Source of the DNA: an uncultured Clostridia bacterium
GTDB lineage: Bacteria; Bacillota; Clostridia; Christensenellales; UBA1242
Reading direction: 5' to 3'
Assembly (NCBI GenBank): GCA_944345705.1
Contig: CALVML010000001.1
Span: 34,871 to 98,870, forward strand
DNA length: 64,000 bases
The notes under the pieces: model-generated
Told to the model about the DNA's origin: nothing
Seen by the model: the letters and a program-made list of their open reading frames with translations, nothing else
Databases searched by the model: none
Made by a program: the position numbers and the translations under genes
In this document: positions 28,591 to 35,318 of the stretch, piece by piece
Layout: each line of letters starts with the position of its first letter
Position numbering within the stretch: the first letter of the stretch is position 1

Positions 28591-29631
28591 CTAATTTTCA
28601 GAATTTAGTTTTACTTTATCTGCAACACTTTTTCTCATGTCTTCGCTGATGGCAGCGTAGTGTTTCTTGGTCGTATTTACATCCTTATGACCTAATACAT
28701 CCGCTACAATATAAATATCACGCGTTTCTTTATATAAATTTGTGCCGAAAGTACTTCTTAATTTATGCGGCGATATTTTTTTAAGAGGAGATGCAATTTG
28801 TGCAAATTTTTTCACTAAGTTTTCTACAGCACGGATAGAAATTCGTTTATTTTGAAGGGATATAAACATTGCCTTTTCTTCTTTTGGCAACTCAAGAGTT
28901 GCGCGTTTTTCAAGCCATGTTTTTAGTGCCATAGCAACTTCATTAGAAAAATACAACATTGTTTGATTTCCACCTTTTCTTGTAACTAAAAAGGCATTTT
29001 GTGTAAAATCAAAATTCTCAATATTTAAACCAACAAGTTCTGAAATTCTTATGCCTGTACCTAAAAATAATGTTATGATAGCATTATCTCGTTCGAAGGT
29101 ATTTTTATTGTACTCTCTTTGTCTATCTGTAAATTCTGTAGGGGATTCAACGGCATTTAAAAGCCTTGATACTTCATCTTTTTCAAGTCTTATAATTTCC
29201 TTATTATGCAATTTAGGAGTGTCGATTTTACTTGCAACATTTGCTTCAATCATATCATGATTAAAAAGATACTTGAAAAAACTGCGCAAAGAAGCAAGTT
29301 TTCGAGCCTTTCCTTTTTCATCATTTTTATATTGTTTATCGTTTAACTGATAAAACGATAAATAAGATAGATATTGTTCTAGGTTTCTAGATTTAATTTT
29401 GTTTATATCCTCCAAAGTAATTTCACTTTCTTTCTTATGAAATACAAATCTTGATAAATAATTAAAAAAAACATATAAATCCATGGCGTAATTATATCGC
29501 GTTAAAGAAGATGTATTATTTTCAATACCTATAAAATAGTCGAGGCAAAAGTCGGGGAGTTGTTCTAGATATTTCGACATTTTTAATCTATTGCTTAGAT
29601 CTCTTTTTTGATAAAAACTTGTTTTTTCCAT
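28591..29631 (-). CDS. Tyrosine recombinase, XerS-like single Xer
   Basis: Catalytic R (GIRISEL), K (VTRKGG), HxxR (SPHKLR), LGH, Y (KHY); 346 aa; next to the strand switch; no mobile cargo. Confidence 0.85.
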   Translation of the reverse strand: MEKTSFYQKRDLSNRLKMSKYLEQLPDFCLDYFIGIENNTSSLTRYNYAMDLYVFFNYLSRFVFHKKESEITLEDINKIKSRNLEQYLSYLSFYQLNDKQYKNDEKGKARKLASLRSFFKYLFNHDMIEANVASKIDTPKLHNKEIIRLEKDEVSRLLNAVESPTEFTDRQREYNKNTFERDNAIITLFLGTGIRISELVGLNIENFDFTQNAFLVTRKGGNQTMLYFSNEVAMALKTWLEKRATLELPKEEKAMFISLQNKRISIRAVENLVKKFAQIASPLKKISPHKLRSTFGTNLYKETRDIYIVADVLGHKDVNTTKKHYAAISEDMRKSVADKVKLNSEN

Positions 29632-29677: not shown

Positions 29678-29691
29678 ATCTATGCGTAAAA
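29678..29691. promoter_or_regulatory. dif half-site in the xer promoter region
   Basis: ATCTATGCGTAAAA is identical to 14 bp of the left arm of the palindrome at 32515-32548. Confidence 0.65.
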
Positions 29692-29954
29692 TACTATGAT
29701 TTTTTAAGTTGTTCTTGATTTAATCATAAAATACTGTCAAAAATATAAATGAGATTTTATAACTGGCAAAATAATATAATATCTTCTTTTATTAAAACAA
29801 AAAAAGTATTTTATTTAATTGAAAAAATTGACTTAATAGAAAAATAACATTATAATTAAAATGAACAGGATATATTCTATTATTTTAATATAAAAGAGGG
29901 GTTTGTAATTATAATAAATATTTCCTAATGCAAATACGAATAAAAGGAGCTAAA

Positions 29955-31244
29955 ATGATCGACATAAATTTAATTAGAAATAATCCAGAATTAGTAAAAG
30001 AAAATATAAAAAAGAAATGTCAAGATGAAAAATTACCTGTGGTTGATGAAGTAATTGATTTCGATAAAAAAGCAAGGACTTTGCAACAAGAAGGTGATGA
30101 TCTTCGTGCTAAACGCAATAGTTATTCAAGTCAAATCGGCGCTATGATGCGTGAAAAACAAATTGACAAAGCAAACGAATTAAAGAACATTGTTAAAGCA
30201 AATAACGAAAGGATAGAAAATATAGATTTACAATTGCAGGAATTAAATAAGGAGATTAAATCTATTATGATGAAAATTCCAAATATTATTGCTGACGATG
30301 TTCCTGTAGGCAAAGATGATAGCGAAAATGTAGAATTAGAAAAATTTGGCGATCCAATTGTACCTGACTATGAAATTCCATATCATGCTGATATTCTTGA
30401 AAGTATCAACGGGTTAGACAAAGAAAGTGCTGGCAGAACAAGTGGCACAGGTTTCTATTACCTAATGGGCGATGCAGCAAGATTACATGAGGCTATGATT
30501 GCTTATGGACGCGATTATATGATTGACCAAGGATTTACTTATTGTATTCCGCCTTTTATGATTAGAAGTGATGTTGTAAATGGCGTTATGAGTTTCGCCG
30601 AAATGGAAGCCATGATGTATAAGATTGAAAATGAAGATCTATTCCTAGTTGGAACAAGCGAACATAGTATGATAGGCAAATTTAAAGGACAAATTATAAG
30701 CGAACAAGATCTGCCAATTAAAATGACATCTTATTCTCCATGTTTTAGAAAGGAAGGCGGTGCGCATGGGCTTGAAGAACGCGGATTATATAGAGTTCAT
30801 CAATTTGAGAAACAAGAAATGATTGTAATATGCAAGCCAGAAGATAGCATGGATTACTATAATAAGATGTGGAAATATACAGTAGATATCTTCCGCAATC
30901 TTGAAATACCTGTTCGAACACTTGAATGCTGTAGCGGAGATTTAGCAGATTTAAAAGTAAAAAGTTGCGATGTTGAAGCTTGGAGCCCAAGACAGAAAAA
31001 ATATTTTGAAGTAGGTTCTTGCTCAACACTCGGCGATGCTCAAGCTAGAAGATTAGGAATAAGAGCAAAAGGTGAAAAAGGAACATACTTCTTGCATACT
31101 TTAAACAATACCGTTCTTGCTTCTCCAAGAGCGCTGATAGCATTTTTAGAAAATAATCTACAAGCAGATGGAAGCATAAAAATACCAGCAGTTTTACAGC
31201 CTTATATGGGCGGTAAGACATCAATAATACCAAAACAAAAATAA
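29955..31244 (+). CDS. serS: Serine--tRNA ligase
   Basis: MIDINLIR, GTSEH, FRKEGG, RVHQFEKQE, HTLNNT; SD AGGAG before ATG 29955. Confidence 0.97.
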   Translation: MIDINLIRNNPELVKENIKKKCQDEKLPVVDEVIDFDKKARTLQQEGDDLRAKRNSYSSQIGAMMREKQIDKANELKNIVKANNERIENIDLQLQELNKEIKSIMMKIPNIIADDVPVGKDDSENVELEKFGDPIVPDYEIPYHADILESINGLDKESAGRTSGTGFYYLMGDAARLHEAMIAYGRDYMIDQGFTYCIPPFMIRSDVVNGVMSFAEMEAMMYKIENEDLFLVGTSEHSMIGKFKGQIISEQDLPIKMTSYSPCFRKEGGAHGLEERGLYRVHQFEKQEMIVICKPEDSMDYYNKMWKYTVDIFRNLEIPVRTLECCSGDLADLKVKSCDVEAWSPRQKKYFEVGSCSTLGDAQARRLGIRAKGEKGTYFLHTLNNTVLASPRALIAFLENNLQADGSIKIPAVLQPYMGGKTSIIPKQK

Positions 31245-31340: not shown

Positions 31341-32330
31341 ATGGGTAAATTATTAATTAATAAGGAATTGATCACAAATGTTGCAAATCTCGAGAATAGA
31401 AAATTTATCAAACAAACCAACAAAATAGTGAATAATTTAGTTGGATTTACTGTTAAACACTTACAAGACAAACTATCTTTTATATCACCCGAAAATGTTA
31501 TTTTGCAACCGGCAAATGAACTTCTGACTGGAGCTATTGTAGATAGCTCTGATTTTACCTATATTCTAGGCGTTAATAGTCCGCAACTTGAAATGAACAC
31601 CTTAAAAGGTAAATCTTTTTGGGAAAATTTTAAAGAAAAACTAAAATATGCTTGGCAAAATCGAAAATCAATTTTTAATAGAAGGAATCGTAAAAAACGC
31701 CGAAAAAAGAAGAAAAACAATGATTTGGAAATTGAAAAATCGAATAATAAGCCAGTAGTATTAGAAAAATATAAAATTTATAATTTATTAGATGACATAC
31801 AAAACAGTATCGTGCTGTTTTTGTCAGAAACAAGTTTGACTTATCTTTATGATAACCGAATAGAAATAATAGGAAAAGATGATTTTGGAGCTAATACCAG
31901 AATAAAAATCTATCCAATGATATTTGATGGTAAAAACTATAAATATTATATAGATAAAAAACAAGGATTTTTGAAAATAGATATTGATAATCGAATAAAT
32001 AAAGTTCAAGAGAAAATCAATAATGTTGGCAATAACTTTTTTAAGATACTAAAAATTTTGAATTATCTTTTCTACAACACAAACAATTATAATTGTAATC
32101 AAATTTTCTTAGAAAGTGTAATATGCTCAGTTCCAGACAAGATGTTTCAAGGTGATGATATTTATAATGTGTTTGTTAAAATAATTAATTATTTATCAAT
32201 TAATTCTTTGAATGTAATTTCTATTAATAATCCAAAACTTACTATATATAAAGATATTGCATGTCAAAATTCAGTAATAGGTTTTCGTAAAATGATTAAC
32301 TCAATTGTAAATGAAACAAAATCAATATAA
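31341..32330 (+). CDS. CdnE/CD-NTase-fold protein with degenerate active site and K/R-rich insertion
   Basis: VILQ......T.....SD and FLES....VPD..F.G.....F..IINYL segments resemble clade-E CD-NTases (comparison from memory); GS and DxD not conserved. Confidence 0.55.
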   Translation: MGKLLINKELITNVANLENRKFIKQTNKIVNNLVGFTVKHLQDKLSFISPENVILQPANELLTGAIVDSSDFTYILGVNSPQLEMNTLKGKSFWENFKEKLKYAWQNRKSIFNRRNRKKRRKKKKNNDLEIEKSNNKPVVLEKYKIYNLLDDIQNSIVLFLSETSLTYLYDNRIEIIGKDDFGANTRIKIYPMIFDGKNYKYYIDKKQGFLKIDIDNRINKVQEKINNVGNNFFKILKILNYLFYNTNNYNCNQIFLESVICSVPDKMFQGDDIYNVFVKIINYLSINSLNVISINNPKLTIYKDIACQNSVIGFRKMINSIVNETKSI

Positions 32331-32514
32331 ATATAAAATCAATTATAATAAGTATTATTAATTATAAATAAAAAATGCACATATAAGCATATTTTGAAAT
32401 CAAGAAATAAGAATGAATTTTGTACCAAAACTAAAGATCTAAAATTAATATAAGAAAAATTAAAGTTATAAAAAAATAACATAATAGTTTTAAAAATAAT
32501 GCTAGTATGCGGTC

Positions 32515-32548
32515 ATCTATGCGTAAAACTTGTGTTTTACGCATAGAT
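32515..32548. other. Putative chromosome dimer resolution site (dif; difSL/difH-like)
   Basis: Perfect inverted repeat ATCTATGCGTAAAA-CTTGTG-TTTTACGCATAGAT at the gene-strand switch, 2.9 kb from the XerS-like gene. Confidence 0.75.
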
Positions 32549-32834
32549 AATAAAGTTTTGCATACTAGTGTTTTTTTACTCCCTATCAAAAATATCCTAT
32601 AATTATCACTCATAAAAGTCTTAAAATATCATTAAAAATTTCTGGACGTTCCACTCTAACCTTATTATACGTTTTAAATTTTCTGTTTTGCACTTTCATA
32701 TTTAATATATTGATATGGGTTTATTCCTTTTATATCACCTATTATTTGCTATAAAACATATTTTTTAACCTTTATTTTTTTTGTTATGACTAGTATGCAA
32801 TGCATAATAGTTTATATAAATATTTAAAAATATG

Positions 32835-33035: not shown

Positions 33036-35318
33036 ATGGATTTATATGCAAAAGGACAACTTTCATTTATGATATTAACTTGCTTACTTGAGCGAGATTT
33101 TTATGGTCTTGATATTATAAGTGAAATCAATAAAAAAAGCGATGGCAAGATAACTTTAAAGAAGCCTAGTGTATACTCAAATTTGACTAGAATGGAAAAA
33201 CAAGGTTATGTTTCTTCATATCTTCAAGACAGTGAATTAGGACCTAACCGAAAATATTATTCAATTACAGAAAAAGGTAGAATTTTCTATAATGATTTAA
33301 AAGATTATTATGATCGAAATAATATTGACGTATTTAGAGATTTTAAAGACGAGTCAAGTATGGAAAAGAATATACAAATCAATTCTAATCTTGATCCTAA
33401 CCTGCTTTCAAAGGTTAATACTCAAATTGTAGAATCTTATACTGCCACTTCTGCATCTAGACAATTGTCTATAAACGAAATTGAAAATGATTCTAATTCT
33501 TTAAATCAAGATATAACTAATATTTCAAAAACAAATACTGTTCAAAATGAAGATATTATAGTCAATAAATATAGCCAAGATATAGAAGAAGAAATCGAAG
33601 AAACTAATGACGTAGATGAAGATCTTGACTCATATTTTGATTTTTCTGATTTTTCAGAAGATAAAAAAGAGTCTAAAGAATCATTGCAAACAACTAAAAA
33701 TCTCAAAGAATCTATCGATAGTCAGCAATCACAATCCACTTATGAAAATGAAAACAACTACGACGATTTCGAAATTGAAAATAAAACACAGATTAAGCAA
33801 GAACCAGTTGCTAATGAAGAAATTGTAGAAGAAACTACAATATTAAATGAAGAATTATCTTCTACTCAAAATGATAATGAACCTACTCCAAAGTACGAGA
33901 GTGAAAATTATATATCAAACTCACCTACTCAGAATGATGATGTAACTTATAGAAGTGAACAAAATATAGAAGAAGTCACCAAAGTTGAAAATGAAAATAA
34001 TTCAATAAATTCAGTTGATAACAATATAAGTATTAATATCACTGAATCAGTAAATAATGATGATATTTCCAAATATTCATATAATCAAGCTAATCTAGAA
34101 CCAAACTCTCAGATTAATACTGTCGATGATAATAAAGAGAATAAAATACATAATAATGAAATAACAAACAAAGATGATAATGCTCAAAAAGATGATGGCG
34201 TTTTCTTGTCTAATAAAGATGTAGAAGATTATAATAGACGAATTTATGATATTTCTAAGGATATAAACAAGTATAAACGCAAACGCAGTTTCGCTGAAGA
34301 TCAAATATCAATTACGGCAACTGATCCTCTCTATGTATCTAATGAAAGAACAAAGAATAATATTGAAGAATTTAAAAATTCAATTCTCCAAAACAAGTCA
34401 AAATATACCGAAGAAAAACAGACCTTATATGACTTATTCCATCACAAGAGAGAAGAAACGGAAAGAAATGAGCAGTTGCAATCTAACTCAAAACAAGATG
34501 ATGGCAAATTCATTACAGAGCGAGTTGATTTCAATCTTACTAAGTTAGATAAACAAGAAACTACTGTTCAGCAAAGTGAAGAACATTTTCAAGATGATGG
34601 TAAGTTTATAACTAATAGGATAGATGCAGGCAAACTTGAATCTGCTAAAAAAATTGAACCGCCTAGACTCAAAATTGCTGAATCTACTCCTGTTAAAATA
34701 AATCAGATGCCACCGCCAAAGCGAGATAAATCAATTGATCCATCACATAAAGATATATTAACAAGACTTTATTCTAAAACAAAAACAGCTCAAGATGCCG
34801 AGCTTAGAGAAGATGCTCTCTATGATTATAATGACTTAAAAACTTTTTACAATAAACAAAATATATCATTTAATGAGTATAAAAAACCGGCAGAAAAAGC
34901 TGAGCATAATACAAATAAATTAATGTTAATGCTGTCATCTGCAATATTTGTTCTCGCAACTACCCTATCGGTAATATTGTATGTAATATGTCTTAGATAT
35001 GGACTATTAAATCCAAATACAAACTTCCTATTTGTGTTATTACCAGCATTATTCTTGATCGATGTTGCTCTAAAAGGATATAATTTTTATCGATATCGAA
35101 GTTGGCTTCCAGCTAAAATGATGCCACAATGGCAAATTTGGATATATACAATTCTTGCAATTGGTATTGTCATAGGATTAAACTTTATATTTGGTTTAAC
35201 TCCAAACAATTTTGCTCAATTTGCAACAACATTAATATTGCCTATGCTTATGATTTTGGCTATTTTGCCTATTAGGTATTATACAAAGAGATTTATGCTT
35301 ATAAAATTTTGGAAATGA
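33036..35318 (+). CDS. PadR-type wHTH + long low-complexity linker + C-terminal 4-TM protein
   Basis: N-terminal YG.DII..I......LK.PSVYS.L.RMEK.GYV..RKYYSITEKGR; ~500 aa N/E/D/S-rich middle; four hydrophobic helices at the C-terminus. Confidence 0.8.
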   Translation: MDLYAKGQLSFMILTCLLERDFYGLDIISEINKKSDGKITLKKPSVYSNLTRMEKQGYVSSYLQDSELGPNRKYYSITEKGRIFYNDLKDYYDRNNIDVFRDFKDESSMEKNIQINSNLDPNLLSKVNTQIVESYTATSASRQLSINEIENDSNSLNQDITNISKTNTVQNEDIIVNKYSQDIEEEIEETNDVDEDLDSYFDFSDFSEDKKESKESLQTTKNLKESIDSQQSQSTYENENNYDDFEIENKTQIKQEPVANEEIVEETTILNEELSSTQNDNEPTPKYESENYISNSPTQNDDVTYRSEQNIEEVTKVENENNSINSVDNNISINITESVNNDDISKYSYNQANLEPNSQINTVDDNKENKIHNNEITNKDDNAQKDDGVFLSNKDVEDYNRRIYDISKDINKYKRKRSFAEDQISITATDPLYVSNERTKNNIEEFKNSILQNKSKYTEEKQTLYDLFHHKREETERNEQLQSNSKQDDGKFITERVDFNLTKLDKQETTVQQSEEHFQDDGKFITNRIDAGKLESAKKIEPPRLKIAESTPVKINQMPPPKRDKSIDPSHKDILTRLYSKTKTAQDAELREDALYDYNDLKTFYNKQNISFNEYKKPAEKAEHNTNKLMLMLSSAIFVLATTLSVILYVICLRYGLLNPNTNFLFVLLPALFLIDVALKGYNFYRYRSWLPAKMMPQWQIWIYTILAIGIVIGLNFIFGLTPNNFAQFATTLILPMLMILAILPIRYYTKRFMLIKFWK

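Follow-up and report, generated by a model that had tools for sequence, protein, structure and literature searches.

A perfectly symmetric, single-copy palindrome at the GC-skew switch of an uncultured Clostridia genome as the probable dif site of a single-recombinase Xer system

The window, by which we mean the whole 64,000-nucleotide stretch of DNA that was analysed, comes from an uncultured Clostridia bacterium and holds a 34-bp palindrome together with the gene for a Xer-type tyrosine recombinase. The features on which the following analysis draws are listed here in the order of their coordinates.

28591..29631, minus strand: gene for a Xer-type tyrosine recombinase of 346 amino acids, the predicted enzyme for the site (from its domains, catalytic residues and structure model)
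29678..29691, plus strand: lone arm, an exact repeat of ATCTATGCGTAAAA without a partner, which precedes the start codon of the recombinase gene by 47 bp
29928-31244 and 31341-32330, plus strand: serS and an open reading frame (ORF) of 329 amino acids, ORF329, given as context only and lying outside the recombination system
32502-32510 and 32560-32568, plus strand: outer inverted repeat CTAGTATGC / GCATACTAG enclosing the site, followed by a run of seven T at 32571-32577 (from the RNA fold)
32515..32548, no strand assigned: predicted dif site (from the sequence itself, its single copy, the skew maximum and homologous sites in relatives)

The palindrome is located in a 705-bp gap between a plus-strand ORF that ends at 32330 and another that starts at 33036. 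Its left arm, ATCTATGCGTAAAA (32515-32528), and its right arm, TTTTACGCATAGAT (32535-32548), are perfect 14-bp inverted repeats, with no further complementarity between the adjacent bases C32514 and A32549, and the 6-bp centre between the arms, CTTGTG (32529-32534), is not self-complementary. The original prediction had described 14-bp arms around an asymmetric 6-bp CTTGTG in an intergenic region, and this description proved exact at 32515-32548.

The complete 34-mer occurs only once in the genome, which comprises 1,283,881 bp in 37 contigs and is 98.85% complete. The 28-bp core pattern, searched with up to three mismatches, also has a single match, and both searches therefore agree with the uniqueness that had been predicted for the site. 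The palindrome by itself was given no weight as evidence: the genome contains 35 perfect inverted repeats with arms of at least 12 bp and a 6-bp spacer, as compared to 0-2 in five Markov-1 simulations, and most of the 35 resemble terminators with an A-run and a T-run. Since palindromes are so common in this genome, the case for a dif site rests on conservation, uniqueness, position and linkage.

A separate family of at least seven perfect palindromes, approximately AAATTAGCATAGTTATG-TTTTCA-TAACTATGCTAATTT with arms of 13-18 bp, was also observed. Its members are mostly found near contig ends (contig and position: C3:86 and 454; C6:47775; C16:30083, 31157 and 31289; C29:1993). This family contains AGTTATGAAAA, the left arm of the Helicobacter pylori difH according to a 2017 review.

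In order to place the site relative to the replichores, we calculated GC skew, which is only an approximate marker of the terminus. Computed over 2-kb intervals, the skew stays positive as far as 32 kb and is negative from 34 kb onward. Over the whole 113.6-kb contig the cumulative skew, at 200-bp resolution, reaches its maximum at +15 bp from the site, with a mean skew of +0.14 to the left of the site and -0.18 to its right. In five of five relatives, belonging to five other families and having a GC content of 36-60%, the maximum within the 80 kb around the homologous site fell between -207 and +798 bp from it. A second set included two single-contig genomes as well as other orders; G045, with 1.6 kb of right flank, was left out, and in the four remaining genomes the maximum was found at -1128, +2543, +3301 and -1127 bp. 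The skew maximum had been expected to converge on the site, and it does so in the window genome's own contig and, at distances of 0.01-3.3 kb, in the nine relatives. The site had further been placed close to the point where gene orientation flips. This flip is found at about 35.3 kb, and it is the GC-skew switch that lies at the site itself.

Polar G-rich words, trained on the other contigs, reverse their orientation at the site. AAGGGGA is found six times in the forward and never in the reverse orientation to the left of the site, and never forward and five times reverse to its right. The top skewed 7- and 8-mers reverse at the site as well, and so do words that resemble ribosome-binding sites and words that reflect coding bias. 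The KOPS-like polarity anticipated for the site is thus seen in the reversal of the polar words, but gene-strand bias gives the same pattern; the reversal is consistent with a dif site and not specific to one. A fixed orientation of the centre with respect to the replichores was considered and rejected, as the relatives disagree: on the strand with the G-rich left flank the centre, compared by eye, reads CTTGTN in the window genome, G033 and G030, and NAAAAG in G029 and G037.

Genes encoding the recombinase were found in 38 of 41 relatives, with 50-83% identity. The 28-bp core, with at most three mismatches, is present at exactly one place in 23 of these 41 genomes and at two places in none; the reversed core pattern, which served as a control, has matches in two of the 41. 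Site and recombinase gene share a contig in 21 of the 23 relatives, between 25 bp and 17.8 kb apart. Other families have them 25-650 bp or 1.3 kb from each other, and in most members of the same genus about 2.6 kb separates them. In the window genome, site and gene are separated by a 2.9-kb gap that contains serS and one ORF.

A scan of species-representative genomes yielded 595 relatives, and the best 80 loci of the 595 were examined. The pattern TATKCGYAAAA-N6-TTTTRCGMATA is present in 61 of these 80 best loci; it precedes the recombinase gene in every one of them, at a median distance of 207 bp and within 700 bp in 53. The conservation in relatives that had been anticipated is therefore found at 61 of 80 related loci, on the upstream side of the recombinase gene. 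Symmetric scans did not detect the site in the remaining 19 of the best 80 loci; these include loci of the same genus, in which the 3 kb scanned may fall short of the site, and fragments at contig ends, and looser scans recovered variant sites in a few of the 19.

The inner 11 bp of the arms are symmetric at 11 of 11 positions in 28 of the 61 sites, at 10 in 22, at nine in eight and at eight in three. The full symmetry of the arms, to which the original prediction drew attention, is perfect here but is not special to this genome, being shared over the inner 11 bp by 28 of the 61 sites of the clade. Comparison of 58 distinct sites demonstrated that positions 7 and 28 are complementary in 53 (G:C in 19 and T:A in 34), that positions 5 and 30 occur as three types of complementary pair, and that positions 10 and 25 are C:A in 10 sites and T:G in nine. 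Such co-variation of the arms would argue that both are read by one protein. The 6-bp centre is variable among the related sites, and the primary sequence of the site is kept across genomes of 30% to 60% GC.

The recombinase is composed of a Pfam Phage_integrase catalytic domain and a SAM-like N-terminal domain. The motifs VTRKGG and SPHKLR, which had been reported for the ORF at 28591-29631, were found in its 346-amino-acid minus-strand product as LVTRKGGN and ISPHKLRS. The protein has the complete tyrosine-recombinase catalytic set R-K-H-R-H/W-Y. Four of its residues (R195, K219, H289 and R292) never vary in an alignment of 81 sequences, the other two (H315 and Y325) are kept in at least 90% of them, and all six catalytic residues are invariant across 10 order-level homologues.

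Among the NCBIfam models XerS gave the highest score, 175.9 bits with a cut-off of 267 (the same model, NF003462, gave 174.4 bits in the genome search). It is followed by XerC (TIGR02224, 167 bits with a cut-off of 335), XerA (160.8 bits, cut-off 220) and XerD (TIGR02225, 160.7 bits, cut-off 330), and the recombinase is thus below the XerC and XerD cut-offs too. The earlier designation as XerS-like stands in so far as XerS is the best-scoring model, but the score lies below the cut-off of that model and the scores for XerC, XerA and XerD are nearly equal. None of 118 full-length representatives of the family reaches the XerS cut-off, the best seven scoring 216-233 bits; among 14 control genomes, this cut-off was passed in one. 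Judged by its sequence, the recombinase is Xer-like and a member of none of the XerS, XerC, XerA and XerD families. NCBI labels two named homologues only as 'tyrosine-type recombinase/integrase'.

An AlphaFold2 model of the recombinase (pLDDT 95.2) obtained its best Foldseek E-values with archaeal XerA. Its best full-length superposition was with XerH bound to difH, with a TM score of 0.66 over 345 columns, the fold being one that is common to tyrosine recombinases generally. When the profile of the family was compared with the sequences in the PDB, XerD scored 99.9 bits, XerA 88.9 and 87.6 bits, and XerH 52.2 bits.

The genome contains five further matches to tyrosine recombinases, six in all. 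Of these five, four are full-length, phage-integrase-like proteins with no score above 92 bits on Xer models, and one is a fragment of 168 amino acids. No match to the XerD model at E<=1e-60 was found in the 98.85% complete genome. By these sequence searches the 346-amino-acid recombinase is the sole Xer-like protein of the genome, which agrees with the single Xer originally proposed: the genome is without a XerC/XerD-type gene. An FtsK with a gamma domain is encoded on contig C3. Two contigs, C36 (9,061 bp, GC 0.237) and C37 (40,297 bp, GC 0.365), deviate from the genome GC of 0.30-0.35 and may be plasmid, phage or binning artefact.

Because of its position at the skew switch, its uniqueness, its linkage and its conservation, and because the recombinase has an intact catalytic set in a genome with FtsK and no XerC or XerD, we consider it very probable that the 34-bp palindrome serves a single-recombinase Xer system as its chromosomal dif site.

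The system could alternatively belong to an integrated mobile element, the recombinase being its integrase and the palindrome its attachment site, with no role in host dimer resolution. PHROG integrase families do match the recombinase, and the degenerate site pattern has exact matches in 24 IMG/VR viral contigs (L211-L234), with about 0.1 expected by a rough estimate from information content. In the excerpted text of one report, moreover, acquisition in modular form is proposed for the single-recombinase systems known to date (PMC9765430). However, each genome has one site, and an element bounded by a second att site was not found. The gene lies among the housekeeping neighbours queA, tgt, serS and RNase Y, its host is without any other Xer, and the identity of its product follows kinship, with 69-83% within the genus, 50-55% within the order and 42-57% in other orders. 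Even the viral contigs fit a borrowed host enzyme, as 23 of the 24 have no recombinase homologue within 4 kb of the site. A mobile-element origin of this kind is accordingly very unlikely as the explanation of the site, and a host dif site is preferred.

The viral copies are of interest in themselves. In four of the 10 loci that were scanned for ORFs (L212, L226, L231 and L232), a terminase gene of a tailed phage follows the site at a short distance. The idea that the phages at the site are 'integrase-less' is unsupported in general: three of the five whole viral records have a tyrosine integrase of their own elsewhere, far from the site. Phages seem to carry copies of the dif site, and they may use these either to integrate at dif or to resolve multimers.

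A second alternative is that the site is only an operator, for autoregulation of the recombinase or for a PadR-type regulator, and that no strand exchange takes place at it. The location of the site 25-700 bp upstream of the recombinase gene in most relatives is what an operator would have, and within the same genus the lone arm is kept beside the promoter. This arm is found at -48 to -93 from the start codon in nine of 23 same-genus loci, the positions being the coordinate of the 28-nt match window, and it may be an autoregulatory half-site of the recombinase. The next gene downstream of the site, at 33036-35318, carries a PadR domain, and such genes are near the site in some other families as well. 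Operator function gives no reason, however, for a location at the skew maximum in 10 genomes, nor for a complete catalytic set under strong conservation. In addition, the full site lies 2.9 kb from the recombinase gene here, with two genes between, PadR genes are near the site in a minority of loci, and the motif CATA(A/C)TAG is a better fit to a PadR operator. Autoregulation would in any case be compatible with dif function. We regard an exclusive operator role as highly improbable beside the dif reading.

The motif CATA(A/C)TAG / CTA(G/T)TATG flanks the site in the window and in several relatives of the same genus. In the window it is found at 32479-32486, 32502-32510, 32560-32568 and 32789-32811, and another copy is found at position 113409 of contig C1 of the window genome (G000). 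The two inverted copies at 32789-32811 directly precede the best promoter-like site of the PadR-domain gene, and CATA(A/C)TAG is probably the operator of the PadR-domain regulator. The encoded protein has 760 amino acids; PadR covers only the first ~85 residues, and the long C-terminal part has no family match. Several other families of the order likewise have PadR-domain genes in the neighbourhood of dif.

The lone arm and the left arm of the full site form a direct repeat around serS and ORF329. serS is a single-copy gene (TIGR00414, 415.9 bits), and the block that it forms with ORF329 separates recombinase gene and site only in the same genus, not in other families. ORF329 has no Pfam, NCBIfam or PHROG match, and the proposal that it is a phage remnant was rejected on this account. 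Its position is conserved in the genus and its identity there is 34-56%, except for a near-identical copy in L060 (94.8%). As a direct repeat of the arm around the block is what Xer-type integration at dif would leave, the serS/ORF329 block may be the scar of such an integration.

The third alternative regards the palindrome only as an RNA hairpin, an intrinsic terminator of the serS-ORF329 transcript without a role in recombination. The site is 185 bp downstream of a plus-strand ORF in a genome rich in palindromic terminator-like repeats, and together with the outer inverted repeat it can form a compound hairpin of -36.4 kcal/mol (z -7.9) in which the run of seven T follows the outer stem; the same outer-repeat motif flanks the site in several same-genus relatives. 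As a sole function this reading is extremely unlikely and was rejected, for the T-run follows the outer stem and not the 34-bp palindrome, the terminator scan raised no flag, a T-run follows the arm in only 13 of 61 related sites on the gene strand and five of 61 on the opposite strand, most relatives have the site upstream of the recombinase gene and not after a gene, C:A (10) is about as frequent as T:G (nine) at positions 10 and 25, which is unexpected under RNA pairing, the primary sequence is kept across genomes of 30% to 60% GC and follows the skew switch, and Rfam gave only sub-threshold hairpin matches (24.5 bits, gathering score 97). The compound hairpin could also end serS-ORF329 transcripts at a site that serves as dif.

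Single-recombinase Xer systems are found in streptococci and lactococci (XerS), epsilonproteobacteria (XerH), Legionellales (XerL) and archaea (XerA). In the excerpted texts of the literature on the bacterial systems, XerS, XerH and XerL (PMC5357621, PMC3025954, PMC9765430, PMC8138268, PMC8136486, PMC1914069), linkage of site and gene is a hallmark of XerS and XerH, and the arms of both difSL and difH are imperfect.

XerS/difSL (Le Bourgeois 2007, PMC1914069; Nolivos 2010, PMC2965235; reviewed in PMC5357621) is similar to the present system in having a single recombinase of ~350 amino acids, a gene-linked site at the terminus, FtsK in the host and arms whose AAAA and TTTT face the centre, and XerS is the best curated model for the recombinase. 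However, in the excerpted review (PMC5357621) difSL is a 31-bp site whose imperfect arms differ in length and enclose a longer centre, an architecture, as far as described there, that is not found in our 14-6-14 site with its identical arms. The score of 175.9 bits is below the 267 of the XerS model, and the host belongs to the Clostridia, whereas XerS is found in Streptococcaceae. The adjacency of the XerS module is seen in the 53 of 61 related sites that lie no more than 700 bp upstream of the gene, but the window genome has its gap of 2.9 kb.

XerH/difH of Helicobacter and Campylobacter (Bebel 2016, structures 5jk0 and 5jjv; reviewed in PMC5357621) likewise combines a single recombinase with a site near its gene. 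According to the excerpted review, difH has AGTTATGAAAA as its left arm, and its two repeats, of 11 and 10 bp, are imperfect (PMC5357621); compared on this text, an inner arm ...TG/CG-N-AAAA is common to both systems. XerH is also the structure on which the model superposes best over its full length (TM 0.66). In contrast, the sequence similarity is weak, with 52.2 bits for XerH as compared to 99.9 for XerD and 88.9 for XerA, and the hosts belong to different phyla.

The Legionella XerL/dif system has long uninterrupted inverted repeats, which are described as unusual among dif sites, and a distance of over 400 kb separates its dif from xerL, both in the excerpted text of PMC9765430. Compared by this partial description only, it shares with our system the single recombinase and the long uninterrupted repeats, and differs from it in that gene and site are linked here. 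The system would act like XerS/difSL and XerH/difH, is assigned to neither by the tests of membership, and is probably a lineage of its own, with a site architecture of its own.

Outside the Xer systems, Cre/loxP of phage P1 has 13-bp arms around an 8-bp spacer and serves the plasmid prophage. It is similar in its symmetric arms, its one recombinase and its short asymmetric spacer, which alone sets direction. Cre-lox is among the fold matches of the model, but it is a more distant one, with a TM score of ~0.6 and 12-15% identity.

An odd number of crossovers after replication can leave the sister chromosomes as a dimer. In the proposed dif system, one recombinase monomer would bind each of the identical 14-bp arms, and two dif sites would synapse at the division septum. 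The recombinase would then exchange strands at the borders of the 6-bp centre, presumably after FtsK has translocated toward the terminus, and the dimer would be resolved. We infer arm binding, the cleavage positions, the order of strand exchange and the dependence on FtsK. In loxP and FRT the direction of the site comes from an asymmetric centre; as the arms of the present site are identical, only its asymmetric centre can give the dif site a direction.

In order to see how widely the recombinase occurs, an even sample of the class was searched. Homologues at E<=1e-40 are present in 49 of 198 good genomes, in 29 of them with at least 42% identity, and XerD-like genes (E<=1e-60) in 129 of the 198; the sampled genomes are interrelated, and these and the following distribution figures are descriptive and no test of the pattern. 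A representative library at 50% identity gave 789 clusters at E<=1e-30. Within the order, XerD-like genes (E<=1e-50) were found in eight of 80 good genomes. A XerD-like gene coexists with a strong recombinase homologue in 10 of the 29 genomes, in some other orders, and there the recombinase need not be the sole enzyme of dimer resolution. The symmetric scan gave a credible site in six of 28 loci of the class sample, seven of the 28 being loci of the same order, and sites outside the genus may be less symmetric.

XerD-like genes were in some cases observed near the recombinase homologue: at G217:C1 2508682-2509509 and G166:C1 152409-153236, both ~19 kb from the site, and at G231:C17 11076-11960, ~2 kb from the gene. 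In such genomes there may be overlap or cooperation between the two systems.

Full-text searches of the literature gave no description of a Xer/dif system for the order or of a XerS-like system in Clostridia. The probable one-enzyme dif system is common in uncultured gut Clostridia and apparently hitherto undescribed there.

A more far-reaching picture can be proposed, although we hold it only tentatively and think it rather doubtful as a whole. The recombinase would represent an undescribed, class-wide Xer lineage with a loxP-like dif whose identical arms leave its direction and the order of strand exchange to the 6-bp centre and FtsK alone, and this lineage would have displaced XerCD in almost the whole order. 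The lone arm would be an autoregulatory operator at the recombinase promoter, kept after a Xer-type insertion of serS and the ORF, and tailed phages would exploit copies of the site upstream of their terminases.

The present findings add a large Clostridia lineage to the single-recombinase Xer systems, with a recombinase that is almost the sole Xer in an order of uncultured gut bacteria. The generic label of its two named homologues, 'tyrosine-type recombinase/integrase', would conceal a housekeeping function. The site offers a sequence marker of the replication terminus for fragmented metagenome-assembled genomes, and the system a natural test of how strand exchange is ordered on fully symmetric arms. 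Phages and other mobile elements of gut Clostridia are also likely to dock at this site.
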